Shown: in pieces, positions 1 to 20,685 of the stretch
Layout of the letters: each line of letters begins with the position of its first letter
How positions within the stretch are numbered: position 1 is the first letter of the stretch
DNA from: Minisyncoccota bacterium
Lineage (GTDB): Bacteria; Patescibacteriota; Minisyncoccia; Phycocordibacterales; UBA2100
Length of the DNA: 48,229 nucleotides
NCBI GenBank assembly: GCA_035500505.1
Contig: DATJXE010000004.1
Coordinates: forward strand, 1-48,229
Reading direction: 5' to 3'
Notes under the pieces: model-generated
Seen by the model: only the letters and a program-made list of their open reading frames with translations
What the model was told of the DNA's origin: nothing
Databases searched by the model: none
Position numbers and translations under genes: made by a program

Positions 1-3000
1 TCTGCAATATGCGGCGCGAAGGGAGCAAGGAGCGTGAGGAAGGTGTTCCATTCGGTCCGCGACACGGAACCTGCCTTTTCCATGGCGTTGAGCAGTATCA
101 TGAGCGCGCTGATGGCGGTGTTGAATTTAAGCGCGTCGATATCTTCACCGACTTTTTTTATGGTCCGATGAAAAAGCGGAGAAAGTTTGCTTTCCGATGA
201 TGTTACCGATTCGCTCGATCTGACCACCCGTTCGATAAAACGTCGCACGCCGACTACTCCGTCTGGGTTCCAGGGATAGCTCGCAACCTCGTTATACGGG
301 CCTATAAAGGCCAAATACATGCGAACGGTGTCTGCTCCCAGCCTGTTCACGACATCGTCCGGATCGACGACATTCCCCTTCGATTTGCTCATTTTTTGCC
401 CATCCGGGCCGAGGATAATGCCCCGGTTCATGCGCCTCGTATACGGCTCGTTGTCCGCTACCAGTCCGGCATCAAAGAGCGCCTTGTGCCAAAAACGACT
501 GTAGAGCAAGTGCATCGTCGTGTGCTCCGCGCCGCCGGAATAAAGATCGATAGGCATCCAGTTCGCTTGTTTATCTTTCGCAGCAAACTCTTTTTCATTT
601 TTCGGATCCGTGTAGCGCAAAAAATACCACGACGAATCGACGAACGTATCGAGGGTATCCGTCTCGCGCTCCGCATCGCCTTTGCACTGCGGACACTTCA
701 CGTTCACGAACGGCTTCACTTTTGCGAGCGGCGACTTCCCTTTTCCATCCGGCAAAAAGTCGTCCGTCTCGGGCAAAAGAACGGGCAACTCCCCTTCCGG
801 GACCGGCACGGTGCCGCATTTCGGACAATGAATGATCGGGATCGGTGCGCCCCAGTACCTCTGGCGCGACACTATCCAATCGCGCAATCTGTACGTCGTT
901 TTCTTCCGGCCGAATTCCTCGGTCATTGCCTGTCGTGCTTCTTGGCTCGACATGCCGTTGAAATTCCCGGAGTTCGTCAGGTATCCCTCGCCGACATACC
1001 AGGATTTTCCTTGTAATCGTTGCAGCACGAGAGAAAAGTCCCCTCGATTGATGAATGCCGTCATGTCTTTTGAGTCCACCCAGACAACTTTTTGTATAGA
1101 TGCTTCCTCTTGGGAAACTTCGATGCGCGCACCGCTTTTGAGCTTGAAGAGCAAAGGAGTGAAGTGACCGACGACATTTCTCTTCCGGAAGGCACCGTAA
1201 AAATTGCTGTGAACAACGCCTCCTAGCTCTTTGACGAATTCCAAATCTGTGTAGCCAGTTTCCTCGCGTATTTCGCGTTCTGCTGCTTGCTGTGGCGTCT
1301 CACCTTTCTCGATCTGACCTCCAACGAACCCATGAGCGTCTCCGGCGCTGTACGCTAGGCACAGATACGAGGGATCTTTCCAATGTTCCACAACAGCAAT
1401 GATTGCGACGCGTTGCACTCCCGGAATGTCCGTTCGGAACGCATCCGGCCCGCTCGTGCGCACGACCAGGGGTTCAACAACCTCTTTGATAGGTAAATCA
1501 AATTTCTTCGCGAATTCAAAGTCGCGTTCGTCGTGCGCGGGCACGGCCATGATGGCACCGGTGCCATAGCCTGCGAGTACGTAATCGGCGATGAAAAGCG
1601 GGATCTTCTCCCCTGTCGCAGGGTTGAGAGCCTCAACTCCTTCGAGCTTCACGCCCGTCTTTTCTTTCGTCTCCTGCTGTCGTTCAAGTTCAGTCTTCTT
1701 GCTCGCCTGCGTCACATACTTCGCGACTTCGTCGTTATTCTTGAGAACGTTCTTATGTTCCAGCGCGAGCGTCACCCACGGATGCTCCGGCGCGAGCACG
1801 AGGTACGTGGCGCCGAAAAGAGTGTCCACGCGTGTCGTGAAGACGCGGATTGTTGGCCGAAGCCACATTAATACATCCGGTTCTTTGTCACCGGTAAAAT
1901 GTTCTTTTGCGGCCATAGTTTCTACAAGCTGCGCGTCAATTTTAGGCGCAAGCCAACGTATATAGTCGATGCGGGTCTGGGGTTCTTGCAGGTCAGAAAG
2001 GAGCAAGCGGCTCGGAGCAAGCTTCTTTATCAATTCGTAGTCGATGTCCCATTTAAAAGTATCGTGAAATTCTCGCTTTTGGGCATTCGGAAACGCTGGG
2101 TCAATCGCGGGAGCGATAAGTACGAGTCGTGCGATCTTCTTCTTTGATTTCATCAGCGCCTTCATCGCGACAATGGCACCAAGGCTATGTCCTACGACGA
2201 TCGTGTCTTCGTCCCAATCGGTTGCCGCGAGAGCCGTCGCAACCTGTTCCTCTTCGACCGGATGATCCGTGTTCGGAAGATCTGGAATAACGACCGTGTG
2301 TCCGAATTCTTCGAGGTGTTTTCTATACCAGTGATTGCGCGGTCGGTCAGCGCGACTCGTATATCCGTGTAAGTACAAATAGGTATATTTCTTTCCAAGG
2401 TCCAGGCCAAAATCTATTTCTGCACCTTCGGAGCGGCCGATCCAATTGCGCTGGGATTCCTTGATCGGCTCCGGCCAGTCCAATTTTTCTAGATCGTCGA
2501 CGAGCCGGTCGGCGTAGTCGGTAATCTTGATGTTCCACTGCAGCATTTCTTTCTGCACGACCTCGTGTCCACAGCGCTCGCACTTGCCGTCCACCACCTG
2601 CTCGTTGGCGAGCACGGTCTTGTCGTTCGGGCACCAGTTGACCATTGTTTCCTTCCGATAGACGAGATCCGACTTGTAGAGCTGAAGAAAAAGCCACTGC
2701 GTCCACTTGTAGTAGTCCGGATGGCAAGTGACGACCTCGCGCGACCAATCAAAAGACGCGCCCATCGAACGGATCTGCTTGCGCATGTACTCGATGTTGT
2801 CTTCCGTCCAATCGCGCGGATTCACTTTGTTCTTTATCGCTGCGTTCTCCGCAGGCAATCCGAATGCGTCGAACCCTATTGGGTAGAGCACGTTCTTCCC
2901 TTCCATCCGCAATTTACGGGCCAAAATATCCGGCACGGCAAATGAATACCAGTGCCCAACATGGAGGTTGCCCGAAGGATACGGAAACTCGACGAGCAGA

Positions 3001-3107
3001 TAGAAATTAGCTTGACCGGAAACGTCGTCCTTGGTCTCGTAGAGGTTCGCTTTCGCCCAGGCTTCCTGCCATTTTTTCTCGATTTTCTTGTGGTCGTACG
3101 ACTTCAT
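1..3107 (-). CDS. leuS: leucyl-tRNA synthetase, C-terminus cut by the window edge (1035 codons visible), with two in-frame inserted domains
   Basis: Absent from the ORF track because it has no stop inside the window. My minus-strand translation from the ATG at 3105-3107 (in-frame TAG upstream at 3117-3119) stays open to nt 1. Motifs read: PYPSGNLHVGH (HIGH), TTRVDTLFGATY and GTGAIMAVPAHDERD (CP1 editing), RDWIVSRQRYWGAPIP, QKMSKSKGN (KMSKS), and Cys-pair zinc knuckles CERCG and CPKCG..CPQCKG. Confidence 0.92.
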   Translation of the reverse strand, partial: MKSYDHKKIEKKWQEAWAKANLYETKDDVSGQANFYLLVEFPYPSGNLHVGHWYSFAVPDILARKLRMEGKNVLYPIGFDAFGLPAENAAIKNKVNPRDWTEDNIEYMRKQIRSMGASFDWSREVVTCHPDYYKWTQWLFLQLYKSDLVYRKETMVNWCPNDKTVLANEQVVDGKCERCGHEVVQKEMLQWNIKITDYADRLVDDLEKLDWPEPIKESQRNWIGRSEGAEIDFGLDLGKKYTYLYLHGYTSRADRPRNHWYRKHLEEFGHTVVIPDLPNTDHPVEEEQVATALAATDWDEDTIVVGHSLGAIVAMKALMKSKKKIARLVLIAPAIDPAFPNAQKREFHDTFKWDIDYELIKKLAPSRLLLSDLQEPQTRIDYIRWLAPKIDAQLVETMAAKEHFTGDKEPDVLMWLRPTIRVFTTRVDTLFGATYLVLAPEHPWVTLALEHKNVLKNNDEVAKYVTQASKKTELERQQETKEKTGVKLEGVEALNPATGEKIPLFIADYVLAGYGTGAIMAVPAHDERDFEFAKKFDLPIKEVVEPLVVRTSGPDAFRTDIPGVQRVAIIAVVEHWKDPSYLCLAYSAGDAHGFVGGQIEKGETPQQAAEREIREETGYTDLEFVKELGGVVHSNFYGAFRKRNVVGHFTPLLFKLKSGARIEVSQEEASIQKVVWVDSKDMTAFINRGDFSLVLQRLQGKSWYVGEGYLTNSGNFNGMSSQEARQAMTEEFGRKKTTYRLRDWIVSRQRYWGAPIPIIHCPKCGTVPVPEGELPVLLPETDDFLPDGKGKSPLAKVKPFVNVKCPQCKGDAERETDTLDTFVDSSWYFLRYTDPKNEKEFAAKDKQANWMPIDLYSGGAEHTTMHLLYSRFWHKALFDAGLVADNEPYTRRMNRGIILGPDGQKMSKSKGNVVDPDDVVNRLGADTVRMYLAFIGPYNEVASYPWNPDGVVGVRRFIERVVRSSESVTSSESKLSPLFHRTIKKVGEDIDALKFNTAISALMILLNAMEKAGSVSRTEWNTFLTLLAPFAPHIA
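993..1472 (-). other. LeuRS in-frame insertion 2: Nudix hydrolase domain
   Basis: About aa 546-705, between FDLPIKEVVE and GYLTNSGNFNG. Contains a complete Nudix box, GGQIEKGETPQQAAEREIREETGY (Gx5Ex7REUxEExGU), encoded at about 1251-1319. Confidence 0.75.
1854..2408 (-). other. LeuRS in-frame insertion 1: alpha/beta serine-hydrolase domain (YdeN/RBBP9-like)
   Basis: About aa 234-418, between RSEGAEIDF and IRVFTTRVDT, where E. coli LeuRS (from memory) has about 9 residues. Contains YLYLHGYTSRADRPRNHWY, VVIPDLPNTDHP and the nucleophile elbow VGHSLGA. The Ser codon is confirmed at 2184-2186. This stretch looks more AT-rich than the flanking core. Confidence 0.6.
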
Positions 3108-3168
3108 CTGGACAGCCTATCATGGCTCTGCGCAGCCCTAAAGCACTTTTCTGGGCTATACTCTTGCC

Positions 3169-3384
3169 ATGGACACCTTACAGAGATGGCTTTTATACGT
3201 TACCAACAACGAGGAAGTCTCCCGCCACGAGGTCGGGTTCGATATCGGCTTTTTCATCGTGAACACTATTGCCGCGGTCGTCGGCAGCGTGCTCTTCATC
3301 GTCAACAATGAGGCTCAGTGGGTGCCTATTCTGGTCATCGAGTATATCTGGGCACTCGATACGATACGCCACAACCGCGAATAG
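3169..3384 (+). CDS. small hydrophobic protein (71 aa), function unknown
   Basis: ORF track entry. It fills the gap between leuS and the next gene. Two hydrophobic segments are visible (IGFFIVNTIAAVVGSVLFIV and WVPILVIEYIW), and third codon positions look GC-rich. Confidence 0.4.
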   Translation: MDTLQRWLLYVTNNEEVSRHEVGFDIGFFIVNTIAAVVGSVLFIVNNEAQWVPILVIEYIWALDTIRHNRE

Positions 3385-3388
3385 CGGC

Positions 3389-4339
3389 CTATTTGGTGGG
3401 CGGATAGCGCGAGGGGTCGATGGTGCGTGAGAAGCACTGCGTGCCCGCCTCGTGATACCACGAATCGCTCATATCGCGCGCGCCTGGCGAACCCGAAGGG
3501 ATCGGTATCGTGAGTTCATTTTGCGTGATGGCGTTGGGGTCCGTTACCGAATTGAAGGTCGCGCACAACTTGAACCCGAGTTTTCCGAGTACTTCGTATT
3601 GGTACGGCTGTCCCGTCTGTGTATCGTTCGGCACGCTGACGCCCGCGAGCGGATCGTTGAGCTCGTTCAGCGTCGTCGGCAAAACGCGCTTCTGTTGCCA
3701 GTACGTCACGACCTCGCTTTGGATGATCTGCAGGTCGTTCACTTTCTGTTCGTCGAGCATGTAGTCACGCGCTTGCATCGGCGTTCCGATGATGAGAAAG
3801 CCGCTCCCGACAGTAAGAATAATAAGGATGCCACAGCCCCATGCGATGGCTTTCGCTTTTTGGGCGTTCTCTTCCCAGTAACCGCCTAGATCGGCGATGA
3901 AATGCAAGAAGCCCGCGCCGGCGACGAGCAGCACGAGTAGCACCTTAAGGATGAATCGTTCGGATATCTCGCCGTTGAGGAAATACATGATGAGCGTTAT
4001 CAAATCCACGGCGAGCGTCGCCGCAGCGACGAAGAGCGTCAGGTAGAGCGCCCATCGGCGGACCCAAATATCGCGGCGGGAAGGATCCTTCTTGATCGAA
4101 TTGTGAATGACGCGTATGAGGACGAGGAATATCGGGAAAAGGACGATGAGCGACGCCATCTCGTAGGAAACACCGCCTTGATACGGATTTCCGGAATAGT
4201 ACGAAGCGAGCTGGTCGGGAAAGGCGTAATTGATATAGTCGAAGACGAGCGCGAGGAACGAGAACACGCTCACGTACAGCGTCACCAGCGCCCCTGCCCA
4301 CAAAAAGAAATCCTTCGGCGTGACCCTTGGTTTGTCCAT
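3389..4339 (-). CDS. multi-pass membrane protein (N-terminal region resembles DUF5671) with an extracytoplasmic C-terminal domain
   Basis: 316-aa ORF with four or more hydrophobic helices. The DUF5671 assignment is from memory of Parcubacteria-type proteins and is not verified. Confidence 0.6.
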   Translation of the reverse strand: MDKPRVTPKDFFLWAGALVTLYVSVFSFLALVFDYINYAFPDQLASYYSGNPYQGGVSYEMASLIVLFPIFLVLIRVIHNSIKKDPSRRDIWVRRWALYLTLFVAAATLAVDLITLIMYFLNGEISERFILKVLLVLLVAGAGFLHFIADLGGYWEENAQKAKAIAWGCGILIILTVGSGFLIIGTPMQARDYMLDEQKVNDLQIIQSEVVTYWQQKRVLPTTLNELNDPLAGVSVPNDTQTGQPYQYEVLGKLGFKLCATFNSVTDPNAITQNELTIPIPSGSPGARDMSDSWYHEAGTQCFSRTIDPSRYPPTK

Positions 4340-4341
4340 AG

Positions 4342-4629
4342 TTATTTTAAGATTATTTTATGTTCTACCCTGGTAATACGTTTCTCGTGGTCTACCAAGG
4401 TTACCGCATCTTTGTCCACGGCGCGAGCAATCGGACGTATCTCGCTTAGAAGTTCTTCCTTTGCATCATCTATCATTGAAGCCACTGTCGCAGGAAAAAC
4501 ATCAAAGCGTTCGCTTAACGAAACAACAACCCCTTGTAATGTTTTAACAGATGTCGAGACTGTTTCGAGAGATTCCAACAACGTTTCCATAGATTTTGAC
4601 AACGTTTCAACAGATGCTCCCTTCGACAT
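4342..4629 (-). CDS. hypothetical helical protein (95 aa)
   Basis: ORF track entry, tightly packed between neighbours (2-nt gap to 4339). Contains repetitive ETL/VKTL heptad-like segments. Confidence 0.5.
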   Translation of the reverse strand: MSKGASVETLSKSMETLLESLETVSTSVKTLQGVVVSLSERFDVFPATVASMIDDAKEELLSEIRPIARAVDKDAVTLVDHEKRITRVEHKIILK

Positions 4630-4653
4630 AAATTACCATCCTACCACACGCTT

Positions 4654-5763
4654 CTAGCCGTGTTTGAACTCCATCACGTCGCCATCCTGAACGACATACT
4701 CCTTCCCCTCCGAGCGTACCAACCCCTTTTCGCGAGCCTTCACCCACGAGCCACATTCGAGCAGCGTGTCCCAGTGGATAACGTCGGCCCGGATGAACTT
4801 GTCTCGGAAATCGGTATGGATGGCGGCGCCCGCATCCGGCGCTCTGTCCCCGCGATGGACGGTCCATGCGCGAGATTCATCTTCCCCTGTCGTGAAGAAC
4901 GAGATGAGTTTGAGGAGCGAATACCCGGCTTTGATAAGTGCGTCGATGCCGTCCTCGCTCATGCCGAGTTCCCGTCTAAAATCCATGCGTTCGTCGTCGT
5001 GCACGTCGGAAAGCTCACGTTCGACCCCGGCATCCAGCATGACATAGCCTGCATCGGAGGAATCGAGGAAATTCTTGAGGGCTTTCCAACGCTCCCCCGC
5101 CTCGGCGTCAACGTTCAAGACACCGCTTTTCTTGTTCAAGATATACAGGACCGGTTTCAGCGTAAGAAGATGAAGACCGCGTATCGTCGCCTGCTCTTCC
5201 TCGCTAAGCGGCACGGAACGGGCGGTCATACCGAGCTTGAGCGCGGGCACGACCTTCTCCAGAGCGTCCCGTTCCGCTATCGCCTCTTTGTCGCCGCTTT
5301 TGGCGTCGCGTGAGACGCGTTCCAGGCGTTTTTCGGCCGTTTGCATGTCCGCGAGCGCAAGTTCGAGATCGATGACCTCGATATCGCGTAAAGGATCGAC
5401 TTCGCCTTGTACGTGGTGCACGTCCTCGTCATCGAATACGCGCACGACCTCTGCGATGGCGTCCACCTCGCGGATATGCGAAAGGAACTGGTTGCCCAAG
5501 CCTTCGCCCTCAGATGCGCCTTTTACCAAACCCGCGATATCCACGAATTCGACGGCCGCCGGTATTTTCTTTGCCGATCGCGACATCGCAGCGAGCTTGT
5601 CGAGGCGAACGTCAGGGACCGCGACGACGCCAACGTTGGGATCGATGGTATTGAACGGATAATTCTCCGCAGGCACGCCTTTTTTCGTGAGTGCATTAAA
5701 AAGCGTCGATTTGCCGACGTTGGGAAGTCCGACGATGCCGATGGAGAGTGCCATGGAGCGCAA
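4654..5763 (-). CDS. ychF: ribosome-binding ATPase YchF
   Basis: G1 motif GIVGLPNVGKSTLFNALT, DIAGLVKGASEGEGLGNQFL, and a C-terminal TGS-like end VVQDGDVMEFK. Confidence 0.95.
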   Translation of the reverse strand: MRSMALSIGIVGLPNVGKSTLFNALTKKGVPAENYPFNTIDPNVGVVAVPDVRLDKLAAMSRSAKKIPAAVEFVDIAGLVKGASEGEGLGNQFLSHIREVDAIAEVVRVFDDEDVHHVQGEVDPLRDIEVIDLELALADMQTAEKRLERVSRDAKSGDKEAIAERDALEKVVPALKLGMTARSVPLSEEEQATIRGLHLLTLKPVLYILNKKSGVLNVDAEAGERWKALKNFLDSSDAGYVMLDAGVERELSDVHDDERMDFRRELGMSEDGIDALIKAGYSLLKLISFFTTGEDESRAWTVHRGDRAPDAGAAIHTDFRDKFIRADVIHWDTLLECGSWVKAREKGLVRSEGKEYVVQDGDVMEFKHG

Positions 5764-5788
5764 TACTAGCCGAATTTTCTACGAGGCG

Positions 5789-6406
5789 CTATATCCCGCG
5801 CTTGCCGAGCTTTTCTACGATGCCGACCCATTTAGCTTTATGCGCGTCGGAAATGTGTTCCGCAGGCCCGAACCATGTCGTGCGCACCTTGAACCCCGCG
5901 AACCACAATATTCCCCACTTGAGCTGGGCGTTCACGTTGCCCGGGAGAAATCGCACTATCCACGGCGCGGTGCCGCTCGTGATGACGATGCGAGCGGTCT
6001 TGCCGCGAAAAAGCCGGTGCCAGAATATGGTGTTCGTGCCGTGTTTTGTCTTGATGTAGCGAAAGGCGGAACCTGGCAGCCAGGCCCGGTCGAACAGGCC
6101 CTTCAGTATGGCGGGCATGCCGACCCACCAGACAGGGTGAATCACGACGAAATGGTCCGCCCAATGCACGAGTTCCTGGAATCTTTTGAGGTCGGGCTCA
6201 AGGTCCTGTATCGCCCGGTAGCCGAGGTGCAAAACGGGATCGAACTGCATTTCGCCGATATTGAGGCGCTGCACGTCGTGCCGGCCCTCCTTTGCCGCCT
6301 GTTCATATGCATCCGCGAGCGCGCCGCACAAGCCGCTCCTGTCCGGATGTCCGAGCAACAAAAATATCTTTTTCGGGGGCATGTCAATAAATACAACGCT
6401 GTTCAA
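5789..6406 (-). CDS. flavodoxin-like-fold NAD(P)H dehydrogenase (quinone), KefF/MdaB-like
   Basis: KIFLLLGHPDRSG plus HPVWWVGMPAILKGLFDRAWLPGSAF, typical of the Flavodoxin_2 family. The true start may be the Met at 6382. Confidence 0.8.
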   Translation of the reverse strand: MNSVVFIDMPPKKIFLLLGHPDRSGLCGALADAYEQAAKEGRHDVQRLNIGEMQFDPVLHLGYRAIQDLEPDLKRFQELVHWADHFVVIHPVWWVGMPAILKGLFDRAWLPGSAFRYIKTKHGTNTIFWHRLFRGKTARIVITSGTAPWIVRFLPGNVNAQLKWGILWFAGFKVRTTWFGPAEHISDAHKAKWVGIVEKLGKRGI

Positions 6407-6561
6407 TCCCCTGCCGAGTCGTCCTCTTCCACGGATTCTTCTTCGGCCAGAGGATTTTTGTCTTTCATTTCGAGTGCAACCTCGTCGTTCGGGGTCTCTT
6501 CCTCGTTCTCTTCCTCGTCGTCGGGATCATTCTTTTTTCTGTAATCCTCGATCATCGTCAT
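6403..6561 (-). CDS. small, extremely acidic protein (52 aa)
   Basis: C-terminal part of ORF 6403..6834, starting at the internal MTMIEDY. Its start overlaps the stop of the upstream RNHCP gene, and its stop overlaps the ATG of the downstream gene. The sequence is low complexity (D/E-rich). Confidence 0.35.
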   Translation of the reverse strand: MTMIEDYRKKNDPDDEEENEEETPNDEVALEMKDKNPLAEEESVEEDDSAGD

Positions 6562-6865
6562 GCTCCAATGATGCCAGGTTTGCTTGAAAGCGCAATGAGC
6601 GCGTCGGCGGCGTCCTGCGTCGAAACGTCCACGCGGCGTATCGCGCCGCACTCGGTGCACCGATGGACGATACGGTAGTTCGGACTGGACCCTTCGAGCG
6701 TTATTGGTTCCATCATCCCCTTGCACGTCGCCGCACGATCTCCCGGTTCGATATCCACATGCCTGCTCCAGAGACATTTCGGGCAGTGGTTGGTGTAGCC
6801 CGTGCCTGCGACGCGCGCGCCGCAGTGGGTGCACACGAAATCTTCCTTACGGCGGGTGAACGACA

Positions 6866-6866
<1 letters not shown>
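6558..6866 (-). CDS. RNHCP domain protein (zinc-ribbon-like)
   Basis: YTNHCPKCLWSRHVD motif plus additional Cys pairs (CTHCG, CTECG). The start overlaps the atpC stop as TAATG. Confidence 0.7.
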
Positions 6867-8492
<1,626 letters not shown>

Positions 8493-8518
8493 TTACTTGT
8501 TTTTTTATTGCTGACAAA

Positions 8519-9421
8519 TCATTTCATCGCCTCGATGCCGGACGTAATCTCAGAAACTTCTCGCGTGATGGCGGCCTGGCGGACTTTGTTGAATACACGG
8601 GTGAAGTCCTTCGCCTTCTCTTTCGCCTTGTCGGTCGCGCTTTTCATCGCGACCATGCGGGCCGAGTGTTCGGACGCTTTCGATTCGAGAAGTGCATGGA
8701 ATACGGCGATGTTGAGAAGCCTGGGCAAGAGTTCTGCGAGCACCGAATCGGCATCGGGTTCGATGGTATATGCCGCAGGTCGCGCCGCCGCTTCCGATTG
8801 CTGCGGCGCATAACGGCCGCGCACGGGGCGAATGCCTTCGACTATTCTTTTCATCGTTTCGGGCTTGATGGGAATTATCTGGTGTACTGTGGGCGCCTGT
8901 TCGAACGTGGAGATGAAATTCTGGTAGACGACGAAAGCCGAGGTAATGTCGTCACGGCGGATGATGTCTTTCGTGACTTCCTGCACTTCCGATTCGGCGA
9001 TGTCATCGCTCACGTTCGTTTTGTTGAGCCCCATCGTGAAGCCGCGCGAGGCGAAGAAATCCCCGCCGCGGCGGCCGAACGCGTAGATGAGGACGTCTTT
9101 TTTGTCGTATCCGCCGACGAGCGTTTGCGCGCGACGAATGACGTTGCTGTTCAGTGAACCTGCGAGCCCTTTGTCGCTCGTGATGACGATGACCGCTGTT
9201 TTCCCCGCACGTTCCTGCATGAGCGGATGCCGTGCGACATCGGCGGTGCCGGACAAACGCTCCAGGACGGAAAGCGCGGCCGCCGCATACGCCCGGCCGC
9301 CAAGCGCGCGTTCTTGTGCTTTGCGCATCTTCACGGCGGAAACCGCCTCCATGGCATGCGTTACAGTCCCAGTCTTTTTGTACGAGAGTATCTTGAGCTT
9401 TATGTTCTTGAGAGATGCCAT
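8519..9421 (-). CDS. atpG: F1 ATP synthase gamma subunit
   Basis: N-terminus SLKNIKLKILSYKKT and C-terminus AAITREVSEITSGIEA, characteristic of gamma. Operon position agrees. Confidence 0.93.
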   Translation of the reverse strand: MASLKNIKLKILSYKKTGTVTHAMEAVSAVKMRKAQERALGGRAYAAAALSVLERLSGTADVARHPLMQERAGKTAVIVITSDKGLAGSLNSNVIRRAQTLVGGYDKKDVLIYAFGRRGGDFFASRGFTMGLNKTNVSDDIAESEVQEVTKDIIRRDDITSAFVVYQNFISTFEQAPTVHQIIPIKPETMKRIVEGIRPVRGRYAPQQSEAAARPAAYTIEPDADSVLAELLPRLLNIAVFHALLESKASEHSARMVAMKSATDKAKEKAKDFTRVFNKVRQAAITREVSEITSGIEAMK

Positions 9422-9422
9422 G

Positions 9423-9857
9423 CTATGCCATTAGACGATCCTTATATTTGGTGAGAAAGGGCTGGAATTGAGAATGCATCGGTTTAGGAAATTCGCCTAT
9501 CTTAAACCATCGTACCTCAAGAAACTTGTTCGGTTCACCATTCTTCACCTTCGTCGGATCAACTTTTACTTTGAAGTCGAACGATATCCAGTGGGTTTTC
9601 GTTCCCTCTTGTTCTCGAAAGATGTCTCGATATCCTAGAAATTCCTGCTCCACTATGTTGGTACAATATTCTTCAGCTATTTCTTTTTTCAGAGTTCCTT
9701 CAACAGTTTCATCAAAATCAACACTTCCCCCTCCGACATCCCATCTGCCGTGCTCGTCACGACAGTTGTTACTTCGCAAGCTCATAAGGACGTTGCCCTT
9801 GCCATCGTGGCAGAAGTACGAGACTGTGACGCCCGGATAATCGGCTCCTTTTCTCAT
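9423..9857 (-). CDS. Nudix-family hydrolase inserted between atpA and atpG
   Basis: Nudix-like box GGSVDFDETVEGTLKKEIAEEY (Gx5Ex7[K]EIxEE). Gaps to atpA and atpG are 3 nt and 1 nt. A spot count of one 60-nt line gives about 42% GC, against 52-63% in atpA lines. Confidence 0.8.
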   Translation of the reverse strand: MRKGADYPGVTVSYFCHDGKGNVLMSLRSNNCRDEHGRWDVGGGSVDFDETVEGTLKKEIAEEYCTNIVEQEFLGYRDIFREQEGTKTHWISFDFKVKVDPTKVKNGEPNKFLEVRWFKIGEFPKPMHSQFQPFLTKYKDRLMA

Positions 9858-9860
9858 ATA

Positions 9861-11429
9861 CTACTTGCTCGCGAACAGTTCCTTGTGCGCCAAGCGGAAT
9901 TCTTCGGTCGCTTTTGCCAGAGTTTTCTTGGAGTCGTCCGAGAGTTGGCCGGTCTTCTTTATCTCGCCAAGGACTTTCTTGTACTGCGCATCCACGAAAT
10001 CGACGAACTTCGAAGCGGTTTCGCGTACGCGGGCGACCGACACGTCGCCAAAAAGCTTGAGCGATGCGGCGTAGAGCATCGCGACCTGTTTTTCGAGCGG
10101 AATAGGCGCGCCGTTCTTCTGCTTGAGAAGTTCGATCATGCGCTGGCCGCTTGCGAGCTGGTCCGCGGTCGCCTTATCCAAATCTTGCGCGAACTGGGTG
10201 AACGCTTCGAGATCGCGGAACTGTGCGAGCTCGAGCTTGAGGCCGCCGGCGACCGATTTCATCGCTTTCGTCTGGGCGGAAGAACCGACGCGGGAGACCG
10301 AGATACCAACGTCGATAGCGGGCCGCACGCCTTTGTTGAAAAGATCGGCCACAAGAAATATCTGGCCGTCGGTGATGGAGATGACGTTGGTCGGAATGTA
10401 GGCCGAAACGTCGCCTTCCTGCGTCTCGATGATGGGGAGCGCGGTGATGGAGCCTCCGCCTTTCTCTTCGCTCAAGCGGCACGCGCGTTCGAGCAAGCGG
10501 GAGTGTAGGTAGAAAATGTCGCCCGGATATGCTTCGCGGCCCGGCGGGCGGCGCAGGAGGAGCGAGAGTTCGCGGTATGCGACCGCCTGCTTGGAAAGAT
10601 CGTCGTAGATGATGAGCACGTCGCGGCCCTTGTCCATGAAATACTCGCCTATCGCGACACCGGAAAACGGCGCGAGGTATTGGAGCGCGGCGGGAGCTGA
10701 AGCCGGCGCGTCGACGATGATAGTGTAGTCGAGCGCACCCGCTTCGCGCAATTGCTGTGCGATGCGCGCGGTCTTCGATTCCTTCTGCCCGATGGCGACA
10801 TAAATACAAACGGGGCGCTTCCCTTCGGGTTCGTTCAATTGGTTGATGATGGTGTCGATGGCGATGGTCGTCTTCCCTGTTGCGCGGTCGCCGATCAAGA
10901 GCTCGCGCTGGCCGCGGCCGATCGGGATCATCGCGTCTATCGCGACGATGCCCGTTGCGAGCGGTACAGAAACGCCCTTGCGGTCAATAACGCCCGCAGC
11001 CTGTCGCTCCACCGGCATCATCGTCGGTTTTTTGAAAGGGCCTTTGCCGTCCTGCGGCTCGCCCAACGCGTTGACGACGCGACCGAGCAATTCATCGCCC
11101 GAAGGCACGCTCAACACGCGGCCGGCCGATTTGACCGTCATGCCTTCGACAACGCGCGAAGTATCGCCGAGGATGGCGGCGCGCACGCCGTCTTCTTCCA
11201 GGTTCAAGACGAGGCCGTACAGTTCACCTTGCGCCTCCATCGCGTGCGCAAGCTTCTTTCCTTTGGTTTCTTCAAAGGTCAATATCTCGCTCATTACCAC
11301 TTTTGAAAGTCCGTCGATCTCGACGACGCCGTCCCCCACCGAGACGACTTTCCCGGCATGGGTACCCTCATGCGCGGGCTTAAACTTCTCTATTTCCTTT
11401 ACGATCTTTTCGACGATTGCATTATCCAT
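9861..11429 (-). CDS. atpA: F1 ATP synthase alpha subunit
   Basis: Walker [16 protein letters not shown]. The 522-aa ORF resembles alpha subunits along its full length. Confidence 0.97.
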
Positions 11430-11432
11430 ACA

Positions 11433-11819
11433 TCAGCGTACGGCCAGATTATACATGTCCAATAAGGATTTCTTAAAACTTTTGTCGACAAGCACCCCTT
11501 TGCCTTCGAGCCGCCAACCGCCGATGAGCGACTCGTCGAGTTGAACATCGAGGTTCTTCGAATCCGCGCCTATCTCCTCCAGAATGGCCTTCACCTCTCG
11601 TTTTGCCTTGTGCGTGTCTTTTTCGCGCGCGACGGAAACGATGATCGCGTTCTTTTTCATCTCACGGGTCGCAAGCCGCTCGAAAGCTCGCGCGATGCGG
11701 GGCAGGAGCGCTTCTCGACCGCGCACCTTGAGCGATTCGACGAGCGCATGCAGCGCCTTTTTCGGCTCCATGCCTTCTTCTACCAATTGCCAAAGGGCCT
11801 GCGCGTAGCTTTTTTCCAT
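11433..11819 (-). CDS. atpH: F1 ATP synthase delta (OSCP) subunit, short form (128 aa)
   Basis: Lies between atpF and atpA. C-terminal DESLIGGWRLEGKGVLVDKSFKKSL matches the delta signature. Confidence 0.8.
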   Translation of the reverse strand: MEKSYAQALWQLVEEGMEPKKALHALVESLKVRGREALLPRIARAFERLATREMKKNAIIVSVAREKDTHKAKREVKAILEEIGADSKNLDVQLDESLIGGWRLEGKGVLVDKSFKKSLLDMYNLAVR

Positions 11820-11822
11820 AGG

Positions 11823-12269
11823 TTATGCGTGCTCCTTCAATATCTTCTCCGCGGCGAGCATCGCCGCACGTGCGATCTCCTTGGAGCTTTCCTGCATCGC
11901 AAGGCGCTTCGCTTCCTCGGCATGAGCCTGCGCTTCCTTCAGGATCGCACTGGCTTTTGCTTCCGCCGCTTTTGTCGATTCAGCGGTCACCTCGCTTGCG
12001 CGACTCCGTGCCGCCGCGACAAGACCTTCAGCCTCTTTTGAAGCATCAGCGACCATCCCTTCGCCCTGCGCTTTTGCGTCCTCAAGACGCTTATTTGCCT
12101 CTTGTGCAAGCCGCACTCCTTCGGCGACTTTTTCGCGCCGTTCGTCGATGATACGGAGGATGGGACGATAGAGAAAGTATGTGAGCGCGGCAAGCAGCAG
12201 CACAAAGTTCACCGCTTGTATCAAAAGCAGATGCCAGTCGACCCCGAATGCCGAGAATAACGCGCTCAT
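11823..12269 (-). CDS. atpF: Fo ATP synthase subunit b
   Basis: A single N-terminal TM helix followed by a long charged A/E/K-rich helix. Operon position agrees. Confidence 0.88.
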   Translation of the reverse strand: MSALFSAFGVDWHLLLIQAVNFVLLLAALTYFLYRPILRIIDERREKVAEGVRLAQEANKRLEDAKAQGEGMVADASKEAEGLVAAARSRASEVTAESTKAAEAKASAILKEAQAHAEEAKRLAMQESSKEIARAAMLAAEKILKEHA

Positions 12270-16887: not shown

Positions 16888-16908
16888 TTACGTGTGAAAG
16901 TTGTTGAT

Positions 16909-17169
16909 TTAGGACGACGCACGAACATACCTATACGTCGCGAATCCCGCGCAGGTTGAAACGACCAAAACATACGTAATACCGGTGATACACGTTTGTA
17001 GAAGAGGCGCCGGGTTCGCGATGACCAAGTACACGCCCGTGACTATCGTCAAGGTGATCAGCACATACGATGCGCCGAGAGTTCTTTTGGAGGGAAACGC
17101 GAGGGCAAGCGTGGCAAAGACGATGCTCGAAACCGCAATGAGAATATGCAAAAGCAGCAGCATAGGCAA
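16909..17169 (-). CDS. small membrane protein with 3 TM helices (86 aa)
   Basis: ORF track entry with three clear hydrophobic helices. Confidence 0.55.
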   Translation of the reverse strand: MPMLLLLHILIAVSSIVFATLALAFPSKRTLGASYVLITLTIVTGVYLVIANPAPLLQTCITGITYVLVVSTCAGFATYRYVRASS

Positions 17170-17247
17170 TAATTATACCTCCAAATCTTAAATTCATGAC
17201 CCTAGAGGGACAAAACCGGAACCAGCTTGTCAGAGAGAGTAAAACGG

Positions 17248-18000
17248 CTATTGAGTGTATTTGAATCTACCGCTTGCAAGTGGTGTACCTTGACCACTCG
17301 GAGGATAGACGACCACTCCCATATTTCCTGATACTCCCGTGAGTGTTGCCGTCCACCGACCGTTTATAACCGGGTACGTACCGCCCCCGTTACCTGAACC
17401 AGTACCGTCAAGCTCAATCAAAACCTCAGTAAGATTTGAAGCCGTACCTGTTACTGTGAAGGTTGATGAGGGCGAGGAAAGCGAGTTCTGATCAATGGTT
17501 GCCGAGGGAGAATGGGTAACGGACGGCTGAACTGGCGTCGAGGGACTTTGTGTCGCAGGTGTAACCGTTTGTACGTGGTTGTCCTGAGAAGCGGAGGGGT
17601 TGGAATCGCTAGATTCCGCTTGCGGTAATGGATACTCTTGTTCAAGCTGTGCAACCGTTGCTTGCGCATTCCGCTGGGCATTTGGCACAACAACATAGAC
17701 GTAATACAGGTATCCCCCACCGAAGAATACTATAAGGATGAGTGCGATAAACGCCCACTCGGTGTGTAGTACTTGTCGGGCTTTGAGCGGAAAACGTTTT
17801 TTCCATCCGTAGTAATAGATTGAACCAACAATGATTACTCCACCGAAGAGTATCGTGAGAATTACTAATAGACGTTCGCCCACAGTCAGTCCATCAGGCA
17901 TCATCGAATTTTGAGCACCGGCACGTCTGACCCTCAACATGTAAAAAACAGCAACGATAACGCTGATAAGAATCAACGCCCAAAAGACTACTTGTGCCAT
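17248..18000 (-). CDS. membrane protein with a Ser/Pro/Thr-rich linker and a beta-rich C-terminal domain
   Basis: 250-aa ORF with three to four TM helices, a low-complexity S/P/T/Q linker, and a C-terminal TVTGTASN...GRWTATLTG region. Confidence 0.6.
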   Translation of the reverse strand: MAQVVFWALILISVIVAVFYMLRVRRAGAQNSMMPDGLTVGERLLVILTILFGGVIIVGSIYYYGWKKRFPLKARQVLHTEWAFIALILIVFFGGGYLYYVYVVVPNAQRNAQATVAQLEQEYPLPQAESSDSNPSASQDNHVQTVTPATQSPSTPVQPSVTHSPSATIDQNSLSSPSSTFTVTGTASNLTEVLIELDGTGSGNGGGTYPVINGRWTATLTGVSGNMGVVVYPPSGQGTPLASGRFKYTQ

Positions 18001-18284
18001 TACGTACCAGTATATATCTCTGATTTCAGCAGTTCAGAGGGGTTGTTAATAACCTCCAACAACCTTTCCAAGACATAGTTCCAACTTTGTCCCGTTAGGC
18101 GCTCAAAACGAGCTTAAAAAATAGGTACGAAAAATCCATGACCCTAACGATACAGAACTCAAACCCAATAATCCAGTTCCTCCAATCGCTTAGCGCTGTG
18201 GCTGGAAAATTCGCCTCGCTCCAAAATCAACAGTTAATCCCTGCTGCTGATCTGCTGGGAATACTCCCCTAATGGGGTTAAAAC

Positions 18285-19160
18285 CTACTGAAAGGCTTTC
18301 GGGTATGCCGCTTGCAGTCTTCCTAAATCTTTTCCGTCTACAGGACAGTAGAATATTTTCTTTCCAGTAGCAACAGATTTGTTGATTGCTTGGGCTTGCA
18401 TTTGGTCAAGTACTCGTTCGTCAATATCGCTATGATGTACAACGACATGAATTTCTGCTGTCCCTTCAAACAACCTCTGTACCTGATCTGCCTTCTTGCC
18501 CATCTTGTTAGGAGTGAGTATTCCCTTTGTGGCTTTGCCCTTGAGAGCAAAGGCCGCCGCCTTTCTCTTTCCCTTGAATATCAGATTGTTGGTGTAAATA
18601 TCGTTTCTTTCTCCACCCCAATCTTTCTTTTCACTCTGGTTCGCAATAGTGCAGATTGCCCTGTTTACTCTGCGCTCCGGCATATCCTTCAGTGATGATG
18701 CGTCTGCAGATGCGATCTTTCGTACAGCTTTGAAAGAGTCGATGTCGTCCACGGTGAGCATTTCCGCTTGTGGCCTGCTTCTGAAAGCATAGTTCTTGAT
18801 GATAGTTTGAGAGGCATGCTTCCTCTTTGTGGGATAGGACTTCAGCCGTACACCATTTGCGGACAGACTCAGAATACGTTGGCGATTATGCGCGTAGAAA
18901 TCTTTTTTGCCGTAGTAGATTACCCCCTTTATAACCTTCTTTTCCACAATGTCCTCTGAATACAGTTTCGCAGCTGCCTTATAAGTATTCACATTGAAGT
19001 TGCTTACTGAGCCGCGTATATCTTCTACCGTTTTCCACGCTTTTTTACCCTTGTATATTGCAACGTAAGTCTCTTTGCACTGCTTGGAGGCTCGCAATAC
19101 CCGTGCCGCTCGTTCGATTTTTTCATCGGCATTCGCACTGGTGTCGCTTACGATCGTCAT
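18285..19160 (-). CDS. hypothetical 291-aa protein; the C-terminal ~120 aa may be a PD-(D/E)xK-like nuclease fold (speculative)
   Basis: Last gene of the island operon. The pattern GGERNDIYT..AAAFALKGK..KKADQVQRLF..EIHVVVHH fits an E/D...xK beta-beta-alpha-beta layout, but it is non-canonical (ALK rather than ExK). I recognise no family. Confidence 0.7.
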   Translation of the reverse strand: MTIVSDTSANADEKIERAARVLRASKQCKETYVAIYKGKKAWKTVEDIRGSVSNFNVNTYKAAAKLYSEDIVEKKVIKGVIYYGKKDFYAHNRQRILSLSANGVRLKSYPTKRKHASQTIIKNYAFRSRPQAEMLTVDDIDSFKAVRKIASADASSLKDMPERRVNRAICTIANQSEKKDWGGERNDIYTNNLIFKGKRKAAAFALKGKATKGILTPNKMGKKADQVQRLFEGTAEIHVVVHHSDIDERVLDQMQAQAINKSVATGKKIFYCPVDGKDLGRLQAAYPKAFQ

Positions 19161-19164
19161 AGAG

Positions 19165-19383
19165 TTATTGCTTCTTCCGTTTCGCCGTCTTCTTCAGCGC
19201 CTTGTTCACAAACAATGCAATCGAGTCTACATCAGCTTGATCGCACTTGAGAATAGCCCGTATCTCCTTGTTAGGCATGTCGAGCTGTCTAGCTTGAAGC
19301 ACGAAGAGTGCCTGCGTCGCCTTGAGGTGTTTCTCTTCTGTTGTGAGTGTTGTGCGTTCTCGACGCTTCTTATTCTTCGCCAT
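19165..19383 (-). CDS. small HTH protein, paralog 1 of 4 (72 aa)
   Basis: Basic N-terminus, a helix, then the HTH-like DMPNKEIRAILKCDQADVDSIALFVNKALKK. Overlaps the upstream gene by 14 nt. Confidence 0.65.
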   Translation of the reverse strand: MAKNKKRRERTTLTTEEKHLKATQALFVLQARQLDMPNKEIRAILKCDQADVDSIALFVNKALKKTAKRKKQ

Positions 19384-19573
19384 GGTTGTTTTTGAGAGCC
19401 TTTACGCCTTTTACAAGACCATTAACTTTTCCGACAGACATGCCGAGGTTCTTAGCAATGTCTGGCTGCGTAGCACCTGACGTATACATCTGTACAGCGA
19501 GCATGTGCTCCAAAAGGTCGGCGACCTTTTGTATTTTCGATTCAAGCGGATGTGGAGATGGTTTATTTTTCAT
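19370..19573 (-). CDS. small HTH protein, paralog 2 of 4 (about 67 aa from the Met at 19573; the ORF extends to 19615)
   Basis: GATQPDIAKNLGMSVGKVNGLVKGVKALK resembles a sigma-70 region 4 / LuxR-type HTH. Confidence 0.65.
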   Translation of the reverse strand: MKNKPSPHPLESKIQKVADLLEHMLAVQMYTSGATQPDIAKNLGMSVGKVNGLVKGVKALKNNHGEE

Positions 19574-19799
19574 GTTTCTTTTGTTTAGCTTTTCGCGCAT
19601 GGTGGAGTGCGACATTCACTGTGTTTCTACTCGTATCCAGCAGCTCCGCGATTCGCGTGGGTGAAAACCCCACACTTCCCATTTGTTGGATGACGTTTGA
19701 TTGCAGCCCTTCACGCTTTACCTGTATAGCGAGCAGCATCACAACCTCTTTGAGCAATGTGACGGCCTCTCTCTGTGCCTGTAGCATTTCCTTTTCCAT
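19563..19799 (-). CDS. small HTH protein, paralog 3 of 4 (78 aa)
   Basis: GFSPTRIAELLDTSRNTVNVALHHARKAK is a sigma-70 region 4-like HTH. Confidence 0.7.
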   Translation of the reverse strand: MEKEMLQAQREAVTLLKEVVMLLAIQVKREGLQSNVIQQMGSVGFSPTRIAELLDTSRNTVNVALHHARKAKQKKHEK

Positions 19800-19801
19800 A
19801 A

Positions 19802-20035
19802 TTATTTGGCTCTCTGTATAGCCTTTCGAACAGCCCCTTCGTTTTTATTGAGGATTTTGGCAATATCCGCTACCTCTAGACCGACCTTCTTCAGGAGGAA
19901 TTCAATACGAGTACTCTTTGCCTCTTCGGAAAGAGAGAGCACCGTGAGAACCAGTAAGGCGGAGAGTTTGCTGTCTATGGCTTTCAGTGTTTTCAAATCG
20001 TCCATGCGCATGACGGTTAGGAATAATGGGGACAT
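19802..20035 (-). CDS. small HTH protein, paralog 4 of 4 (77 aa)
   Basis: GLEVADIAKILNKNEGAVRKAIQRAK HTH. First gene of the operon. Alternative starts at 20011 and 20005. Confidence 0.7.
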   Translation of the reverse strand: MSPLFLTVMRMDDLKTLKAIDSKLSALLVLTVLSLSEEAKSTRIEFLLKKVGLEVADIAKILNKNEGAVRKAIQRAK

Positions 20036-20080
20036 TCTACCAGCCCGCCGCTCGCGTGCAACAGCAAATTGTCCAATGTT

Positions 20081-20107
20081 GATAAGATATCGCTACGATA
20101 TATTATC
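20081..20107. promoter_or_regulatory. operator-like imperfect palindrome upstream of the HTH operon
   Basis: GATAAGATATCG-cta-CGATATATTATC, with arms matching at 11 of 12 positions. Lies 46-72 nt upstream of the ATG at 20035, in AT-rich DNA with TATAAA/TATATT -10-like hexamers. Confidence 0.5.
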
Positions 20108-20610
20108 TCTGAACTCTATAAAATGCCTCAAATACGATGCATTCGCTATATTTGACTAAGTTTATGCGTTATCTACAAAATCAACGATGCGATACTCGGA
20201 AGTCTTTTTGTCAATGGGGCGTGTACCCAGCTTCTTTGCAAACCTCGTTTATTGCTGCACCAAGACGAGCAGCGCAATCTGGGTCGTGTAGGCATTTCTG
20301 CGCTTCCGCGTCTTTTGCTTCCCGTCGCTTCTCACCAATCCACAAAGGGACTACGATAATCACCAGTAAAAACAGGGCTGCCCAGAGAATAATGTTGCGT
20401 CTGCTGATGTTGAGTCTGCTGTTAAATTCGGCTTGCGTGTTGTCAAAGAACTCCCGCTTGCTTGGAAGACATTGGAAGTCGAGGAGCTACGTGAACTCCG
20501 CTTAACGCTCTTTCCTCAAAACTTGAGGTACAACTATCCGAATTTCAAAACCGCTGAATTATCACCAATCTACAGCATAAAAGCCGCATCTGGCGACGAG
20601 ACGAACCGTT

Positions 20611-20685
20611 TGGTGACCCTACGGGGAATCGAACCCCGCTTTCGACCGTGAGAGGGTCGCGTCCTAGCCGATAGACGATAGGGCC
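20611..20685 (-). tRNA. tRNA-Glu (anticodon CUC), CCA encoded
   Basis: Manual cloverleaf: GGCCCTA/TAGGGTC acceptor stem, GTCT/GGAC D stem, CGACC-CTCTCAC-GGTCG anticodon arm, CGGGG-TTCGATT-CCCCG T arm, then A-CCA. Confidence 0.9.

Follow-up and report, generated by a model that had tools for sequence, protein, structure and literature searches.

In a 48,229-nucleotide stretch of a Minisyncoccota bacterium genome (assembly GCA_035500505.1, contig DATJXE010000004.1; hereafter the window), we examined a cassette of five tandem minus-strand genes at positions 18285-20035, in which genes for four small helix-turn-helix (HTH) proteins, S1 to S4, lead into a gene for a 291-amino-acid (aa) protein of an unnamed family that we refer to as BIG. 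We judge the chances to be about even that the cassette is one copy of a conflict module, of the defence or addiction type, that is self-contained and moves horizontally. This reading rests on an empty insertion site in a relative, the AT-richness of the cassette, its patchy spread, the fixed partnership of BIG with the mini-HTH genes, the fold of BIG and the presence of defence and mobile genes among its neighbours. It rests as well on the invariant acids and lysine of BIG (E162, D180, E184, D187 and K207) and on distant variants of its C-terminal 'DWGGE' domain that adjoin SIR2_2, an AAA_15/21 ATPase with SLFN_AlbA_2, and Hypoth_Ymh.

A recurrent cassette inserted at tRNA-Glu

The genes of the cassette, in order of position, are as follows.

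18285-19160, minus strand: BIG, 291 aa, unnamed family, last gene of the cassette
19165-19383, minus strand: S4, class B mini-HTH protein, 72 aa, overlapping S3 by 14 nt and ending 4 nt before BIG
19370-19573, minus strand: S3, class B mini-HTH protein, 67 aa, overlapping S2 by 11 nt, with a longer open reading frame to 19615
19563-19799, minus strand: S2, class A mini-HTH protein, 78 aa, matching Sigma70_r4_2 at 26.6 bits
19802-20005, minus strand: S1, class A mini-HTH protein, 67 aa, with an open reading frame that could extend to 20035

As called, the open reading frames (ORFs) span 19802-20035, 19563-19799, 19370-19615, 19165-19383 and 18285-19160. Orthologues on L001, a Kerfeldbacteria contig that carries the cassette and served as the reference for starts and for dN/dS, set the likely starts of S1 at 20005 (MDDLK) and of S3 at 19573 (MKNKP). 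With these starts the junctions from S1 to BIG measure +2, -11, -14 and +4 nt, and the five genes form one translationally coupled operon. We take the ORFs to be real genes because about 80 loci show this gene order and because dN/dS against L001 is well below 1. A first-pass annotation of this DNA had described four small ORFs of 67-78 aa plus one of 291 aa, with junctions of these sizes, and had quoted four HTH peptides and several BIG motifs; all of these were recovered in the gene calls and translations. The low GC content that it reported was likewise borne out, the cassette measuring 46.2% against 54.2% in its flanks. Its description of the cassette as an orphan does not hold, however, since the cassette is not unique and belongs to a sizeable unnamed family.

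Homologues of BIG number 161 at full length, nearly all of about 290 aa and either unnamed or labelled 'hypothetical', and a profile of the C-terminal domain matches, at E<=1e-3, the representatives of 1111 clusters built at 50% identity. A scan of one genome for each of 185,579 species gave 88 BIG relatives. Bacterial carriers include Planctomycetota, Acidobacteriota, Proteobacteria, Actinomycetota, Nitrospirota, Verrucomicrobiota, Leptospira and lineages of the candidate phyla radiation (CPR), and archaeal carriers are found in Thermoplasmata, Woesearchaeota, Thaumarchaeota, Halobacteria and Nanoarchaeota. Cultured carriers number at least three, namely Afipia sp. OHSU_II-C1 (WP_024577675.1), Bradyrhizobium sp. 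McL0616 (WP_426609507.1) and Leptospira sp. 96542. From one to five co-oriented mini-HTH genes lie just upstream of BIG in 74 of 81 loci, and most loci without co-oriented small genes have truncated BIG copies. The last small gene ends between -20 and +12 nt from the BIG start in 50 of 74 loci, at exactly 4 nt in 16 of those 50. Within 4 kb to each side, about 80 loci share no conserved ORF family of at least 100 aa apart from BIG, and the proposal of a self-contained module is thus upheld in that BIG and the mini-HTH genes alone are conserved together.

The small genes fall into two HTH classes with a fixed arrangement. Class A (S1/S2), which resembles sigma-70 region 4, is distal and supplies the most distal small gene in 48 of 57 loci; class B (S3/S4) lies beside BIG and supplies the adjoining gene in 51 of 63. 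In the window, S1 (27.8-28.2 bits) and S2 both exceed the Pfam gathering score of 25.7 for Sigma70_r4_2 (PF08281), S3 gives only weak matches to HTH_23, HTH_24 and Sigma70_r4_2, and S4 alone gives no Pfam HTH match, so that the sigma-70 region 4/LuxR-like HTH originally assigned to all four stands for S1 and S2, is weak for S3 and finds no such match for S4. Profile-profile comparison with hhalign links S1 to S2 (99%), S2 to S3 (95%), S1 to S3 (84.5%) and S3 to S4 (88.7%). These links support the view, already put forward in the first-pass annotation, that S1 to S4 are a chain of diverged paralogous HTH proteins, and when S1-S4 are used as seeds, iterated HMM searches settle on a single small-HTH superfamily with 243 ORFs. 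Of 150 small-family members, 22 pass or approach the Sigma70_r4_2 threshold, and 6 match GerE. Each mini-HTH is in essence a four-helix unit of region 4 size. Unlike members of the sigma-70 family, however, they are stand-alone proteins of 55-100 aa that were found only beside BIG, with region 4-type matches only; lacking region 2 and region 3, they are therefore not sigma factors.

Against their L001 orthologues S1-S4 are 60-68% identical, S1 being at 60%, and BIG is 83% identical. The possibility, raised earlier, that the small ORFs lack conservation or purifying selection is contradicted by their recurrence and by dN/dS values of 0.20 for S3 and 0.08 for S4, with dS saturated or high in this comparison; the small genes are under purifying selection. 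Homologues of S2 amount to only 42 in 5.8 billion proteins, at 56-78 aa in length, and a cassette with a confirmed BIG homologue was present in all three long-contig contexts checked for them. The small proteins thus appear, from their sequence distribution, to be dedicated to BIG. An alternative layout occurs in six loci (L021, L027, L036, L042, L051 and L087), where three or four mini-HTH genes are divergently transcribed; a single class B gene is still co-oriented directly upstream of BIG in L021, L036, L042, L051 and L087, and no co-oriented small gene was detected in L027.

Several features point to horizontal movement. Of 76 loci, 74 have a cassette richer in AT than the flanking DNA (median difference -8.6 points), in hosts of 29-70% GC; the flanks are unrelated even between close cassette copies, and the window and its nearest sequenced relative share homologous DNA in the cassette alone. 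In the window itself, the cassette lies within an insertion, bounded as follows.

16891-20613, no strand: AT-rich island of 3.7 kb between tRNA-Glu and the SAHH gene, with an empty site in L103
20611-20685, minus strand: tRNA-Glu(ctc), called by ARAGORN and matched by the Rfam tRNA model at 52.7 bits, its 3' end forming the left junction of the insertion

The relative L103 was found by a PBP2 search, and its PBP2 and SAHH are 82% and 90% identical to those of the window. Its gene order is PBP2, tRNA-Glu(ctc), SAHH, and SAHH begins 22 nt after the tRNA. Between the window and L103, collinear homology of the DNA breaks at 20613-20614 and resumes at 16890, and because the site is empty in L103, 16891-20613 is an insertion at the 3' end of tRNA-Glu. 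The insert holds a spacer, the five-gene cassette and two predicted membrane-protein genes. The accessory character that had been claimed for the cassette is substantiated by this empty site, and the tRNA-Glu neighbour is confirmed, with the insertion sitting exactly at the tRNA 3' end and the tRNA 575 nt upstream of S1, and the cassette is not a core-genome block, being rare, patchy and absent from the relative's site. Adjacency to a tRNA holds in the window and in a minority of the family: 15 of 60 loci include a tRNA or tmRNA, and tRNA-Glu stands beside the cassette also in L001 and L011. We found no integrase in the 3.7-kb insert (ORF calls, Pfam) and no junction direct repeats of at least 7 nt at its ends; tRNA-derived att repeats and terminal inverted repeats were also looked for and none were found. 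The island therefore lacks the integrase gene and the att repeats from the tRNA 3' end that mark integrase-mediated tRNA-targeting islands.

Upstream of S1, two elements overlap.

20081-20107, no strand: palindrome GATAATATATCG-TAG-CGATATCTTATC, a candidate operator, with 12-nt arms that are 92% complementary
20102-20131, minus strand: promoter-like site TTGAGG, 18 nt, GATAAT, with 9 of 12 matches in a consensus scan, a pattern match only

The palindrome has one mismatch in its arms and a 3-nt spacer, is matched by only 2 of 300 shuffles of the region, and is overlapped by the -10 element of the promoter-like site. No comparable repeat occurs in L001, and upstream inverted repeats show no general excess across 63 loci. 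The palindromic operator of the first-pass annotation thus exists as a locally unusual palindrome in the window, which may be an operator, and an operator conserved across the family is rejected.

BIG, its predicted fold and its putative active site

BIG has no match in Pfam, NCBIfam, PADLOC, PHROGs or PDB sequences. Its AlphaFold2 (AF2) model (pLDDT 88.5) is predicted to contain two domains.

18909-19130, minus strand: BIG residues 11-84, predicted winged helix-turn-helix domain (Foldseek against PDB; weak ArsR profile match)
18288-18785, minus strand: BIG residues 126-291, 'DWGGE' domain, predicted restriction-endonuclease-like fold (domain model and BFVD matches)

At the N-terminus, Foldseek against PDB returns TubR, SqrR/ArsR, BigR, MarR and SarA at a probability of about 1.0, with E values of 5e-3 to 0.1 and target TM of 0.6-0.7, and the model thus indicates the winged helix that the first-pass annotation had thought possible. 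The TubR matches reflect the generic winged helix only, and a TubR-like role in partition was rejected. The C-terminal domain was modelled alone because full-length Foldseek searches were dominated by the winged helix. In BFVD, a set of predicted viral structures, the top matches of that model (pLDDT 90.9, pTM 0.87) carry the name 'Restriction endonuclease', with E 3.3e-4 to 3e-2, some 150 columns aligned and query TM 0.45-0.53; an Mrr-domain protein, a protein like T7 endonuclease I and subunits of the Rpb5 type follow (up to E ~5e-2). These matches support a restriction-endonuclease-like fold for the modelled domain, at the level of fold only.

Eleven residues are invariant in the BIG family: E162, D180, W181, G183, E184, D187, K207, Q226, D278, R281 and Y286. 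In the model, E162 starts the helix 162-172, D180-W-G-G-E184-x-x-D187 leads into the strand 188-195, and K207 ends the paired strand 198-207, an arrangement that would fit the geometry of a restriction-endonuclease active site. The predicted domain plan resembles that of Mrr (EcoKMrr), DpnI, HhiV4I and FcyTI, winged-helix/endonuclease enzymes of the type IV class (PMC11037411), in that a single polypeptide of about 300 aa joins an N-terminal winged helix to a C-terminal restriction-endonuclease-like fold, with no cognate methyltransferase and with a horizontally mobile, patchy distribution. Shared too are a Gly-rich loop before an invariant Asp that opens a beta-hairpin and an invariant Lys that closes it. 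By contrast with these enzymes, BIG carries no Mrr_N or Mrr_cat sequence signal, has Ala in place of the Q/E of (Q/E)xK, possesses its own invariant DWGGExxD and GDQxxRL motifs, and is accompanied by one to five dedicated mini-HTH genes. Given the lack of a sequence match to Mrr_N (PF14338), the N-terminal winged helix typical of Mrr is therefore present at fold level only, and the sequence signature of Mrr_cat (PF04471) is absent. We regard BIG as a new sequence family with Mrr-like domain logic and a predicted restriction-endonuclease-like fold, whose nuclease activity is putative.

Two further observations concern BIG. The linker between its winged helix and C-terminal domain is modelled with low confidence and contains a nearly invariant P110-T111-K112 ('YPTKR'; window positions ~18825-18833), which may be a docking or modification motif. 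A similarity of the 'WGGE(D)DD' stretch to beta-1,4-galactosyltransferase, returned by a PDB profile search and by Pfam Glyco_transf_7C at E 0.008 or worse, was rejected as a chance motif.

A possible conflict module weighed against its rivals

If the cassette is a mobile conflict module, BIG would be its effector, a DNA-targeting, winged-helix-guided nuclease of a new family that acts without a methyltransferase partner and shares its domain logic with Mrr and the other type IV restriction enzymes of winged-helix/nuclease build. In type IV restriction, joining a winged helix to an endonuclease is an established design (PMC11037411). BIG's co-translated class B partner would be a controller or antitoxin that either sets an expression threshold or keeps BIG inactive, and the class A proteins would autoregulate the operon, in the window perhaps via the palindrome over the -10 element; alternatively, they could be subunits of a complex that add DNA-binding specificity. 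Release of the nuclease would be triggered by foreign DNA or by a lost balance between the partners.

Within this reading, a more specific one is that the cassette is an undescribed three-component defence system of bacteria and archaea, in which a nuclease of a new family is governed by ordered sigma-70 region 4-like mini-proteins and not by methylation; we hold this version only tentatively. The mini-proteins could then serve as DNA-binding subunits, either marking or shielding the cell's own DNA or guiding the nuclease; alternatively, they could mimic host sigma region 4 as decoys, so that a phage anti-sigma or appropriator protein that captures them frees the nuclease in the manner of a guard. 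There is a moderate chance that the system is distinct and new. We found no described equivalent of the cassette in the literature searched, and searches of PADLOC, Pfam, NCBIfam and PHROGs gave none of the five proteins a convincing match beyond HTH, in keeping with the first-pass statements that no described system, and no recognised integrase, methylase or toxin family, could be matched to it. If the conflict reading is true, the known prokaryotic conflict systems would gain an unnamed protein family, which has more than 1000 clusters at 50% identity, together with a new type of operon. In this design, a nuclease-fold effector without a methyltransferase is permanently tied to tiny HTH proteins encoded in an ordered array, and the arrangement reaches CPR bacteria, major bacterial phyla and archaea. 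The cassette is short (about 1.7 kb) and present in at least three cultured strains, and is therefore directly testable; and since the DWGGE domain recurs beside SIR2, ABC-type ATPase and HEPN genes, knowing its activity would annotate several candidate systems.

Two classes of small operon offer partial parallels. Like the operons of restriction-modification (R-M) controller (C) proteins, the cassette places a small HTH gene immediately upstream of, and translationally coupled to, a nuclease-like gene, and in the window a palindrome lies over a promoter-like -10 element. It differs from them in having no methyltransferase and up to five HTH genes of two classes, as against one Xre-type C protein, and in the lack of a conserved palindrome; no cognate methyltransferase is conserved in about 80 loci with 4 kb on each side, and the upstream regions of 63 loci gave no sign of a conserved C-box operator. 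With type II toxin-antitoxin systems that have HTH antitoxins the cassette shares the form of a compact, AT-rich, mobile operon with a small DNA-binding protein upstream of a larger putative effector, but its array is multi-gene and ordered, its effector has its own winged helix and it matches no known toxin or antitoxin family. We class the cassette as a mobile island in which an effector of predicted nuclease fold is partnered by HTH proteins, its function putative.

Several results weigh against a conflict module with a nuclease effector. The position two residues before K207, where Asp, Glu or Gln would be expected, is a nearly invariant Ala205, and catalysis would therefore need a relocated acid such as E184; E184 and D180 might substitute for the missing one. 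Foldseek of the C-terminal domain against PDB is not significant, its best E being 0.085 and an Rpb5 N-domain reaching a probability of 0.75, and a Pfam search of 34 BIG-family members found no nuclease family. Nor does BIG match Mrr at sequence level: hhalign probabilities do not exceed 1%, at 0.3% against EcoKMrr and 1%, in the wrong register, against a 120-sequence Mrr_cat alignment, and membership of Mrr_cat was rejected at that level. The PD-(D/E)xK superfamily is marked by an alpha-beta-beta-beta-alpha-beta core and by a D...(D/E/Q)xK motif on the beta2-beta3 hairpin together with a Glu carried on a helix. The PD-(D/E)xK fold of the first-pass annotation thus survives as a prediction at fold level, through the BFVD matches, and loses its (D/E)xK acid. 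PADLOC-DB v2 yields no convincing model match for any of the five proteins, with no match for BIG, S2 and S4 and E values of only 0.006-0.03 for S1 and S3 to HTH-type candidate models, and the palindrome is not conserved in the family. Finally, the immediate neighbours are mostly housekeeping genes and not defence islands. The 128 nearest flanking proteins are largely housekeeping singletons; among them are 6 phage integrases, 2 IS200-type transposases, IstB and AP2/HNH, 4 Hypoth_Ymh proteins that match PADLOC PDC-M34B (Hypoth_Ymh being a HEPN family; PMC3710099), 2 GIY-YIG proteins that match PD-T4-3, and AbiEi, a type I S subunit and DrmD. These defence and mobile genes count in favour of the conflict reading, as do a GmrSD homologue that abuts L101 and the protein with an RNxxxH motif described below.

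The alanine at the canonical acid position, the lack of a nuclease match at sequence level and the frequent housekeeping genes in the flanks also speak for a regulatory module, as do the HTH or winged-helix domain in all five proteins and the labels 'predicted transcriptional regulator' or 'ArsR family regulator' that some databases give to BIG homologues. BIG would here be a non-catalytic DNA-binding regulator with an endonuclease-derived domain for ligand sensing or oligomerisation, and together with the mini-HTHs would make up a unit of several components that serves island or host genes in transcription or nucleoid control. We consider this rather unlikely, given that three invariant acids and a lysine grouped around a beta-hairpin look more like a metal-dependent active site than like a scaffold, that no target genes travel with the cassette and no other gene is conserved nearby, and that its extremely patchy distribution, its AT-richness and the occurrence of HEPN, SIR2 and ATPase genes beside family members point to conflict systems. 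A plain toxin-antitoxin or addiction module with no anti-phage role, in which BIG is the toxin, class B the antitoxin and autorepressor, and the other HTHs duplicated copies that stabilise the island, seems unlikely. It would account for the translational coupling, in most loci, of BIG to a small HTH gene that directly precedes it, for the five loci of the divergent layout in which one class B gene stays co-oriented upstream of BIG with the other small genes opposite, for the persistence of an integrase-less island between essential genes, and for degraded BIG copies that mostly lack small genes. The fixed order of two HTH classes, all under purifying selection, is nonetheless unlike redundant antitoxin duplicates, BIG has its own DNA-binding domain, and no known toxin or antitoxin family was matched.

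Insertion exactly at the tRNA-Glu 3' end in an island without an integrase, the tRNA-Glu flanking the cassette in L001 and L011 and the tRNA or tmRNA genes of other loci, and the occurrence of copies in unrelated genomic contexts would all suit a third rival, a mobility module in which BIG is a site-specific (homing or insertion) nuclease and the mini-HTHs bind element or target DNA, which would explain integrase-free insertion at tRNA 3' ends. We regard it as very improbable: terminal repeats, inverted or direct, and a target duplication are all missing, the DNA homology that the window shares with L001 breaks off within the cassette and not at defined ends, the island in the window holds unrelated cargo, most loci have no nearby tRNA, and the six flanking integrases suggest that the cassette is cargo of other elements.

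Island cargo, spacer and variant loci

Outside the conserved cassette, the island carries two further genes.

17248-18000, minus strand: 250-aa predicted membrane protein, island cargo outside the conserved cassette
16909-17169, minus strand: 86-aa predicted membrane protein, island cargo inside the insertion

Neither has a Pfam match or a homologue at other cassette loci. The 86-aa protein has about three transmembrane (TM) segments; the 250-aa protein combines TM segments with a linker rich in Ser, Pro and Thr and a beta-rich C-terminus. An imperfect direct repeat of 34 nt and 74% identity occurs at 17190-17223 and 18132-18165, its copies lying, on the minus strand, just upstream of the 86-aa and the 250-aa gene respectively, and may be a shared promoter or regulatory element. 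In the 575-nt spacer (20036-20610), Rfam finds the tRNA only and no other RNA element; a possible 50-aa ORF with a GTG start and a hydrophobic N-terminus lies at 20211-20363 on the minus strand, and a terminator-like hairpin follows tRNA-Glu at 20583-20597. The same tRNA-Glu(ctc) is syntenic in L103 and in L104, a second relative whose PBP2 is 74% identical to that of the window. L104 has no SAHH after this tRNA and instead carries glycosyltransferases, PAP2, DUF2127, a methyltransferase and a histidine kinase at 5766-12061, 3' of the tRNA; since this content differs from the SAHH arrangement, gene content 3' of this tRNA-Glu varies between relatives.

On plasmids we found two distant matches, about 33% identical over the C-terminal domain, in Rhodococcus and Gordonia. 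No relatives were present in 2.9 million IMG/VR contigs, and INPHARED yielded one unverified 'Bacteriophage sp.' contig with a variant architecture. More broadly, distant variants of the DWGGE domain have other N-termini, and the N-terminal extensions of the long variants (428-485 aa) contain no Pfam domain. The 'Bacteriophage sp.' contig (L093, MT837022.1) encodes at 2196-3296 a 366-aa protein with the DWGGE domain behind a different N-terminus, followed immediately by a SIR2_2-domain protein (3441-4691; E 1e-9), and from their sequences these look like a separate two-gene candidate defence pair. A 469-aa variant (L094, 5001-6410) adjoins an AAA_15/AAA_21 ATPase, SLFN_AlbA_2 proteins and RNase_H_2, and a 485-aa variant (L096, 5001-6458) adjoins Hypoth_Ymh. 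Within about 2.6 kb of BIG, some ten loci encode a protein of about 170 aa that has no Pfam match and a conserved RN[ILV]x[AGS]H motif of the HEPN-like Rx4H kind (L101/L102 at 3644-4159, and L032, L039, L041, L080, L014, L040, L057, L076 and L084); by its motif, it may be an optional RNase component.

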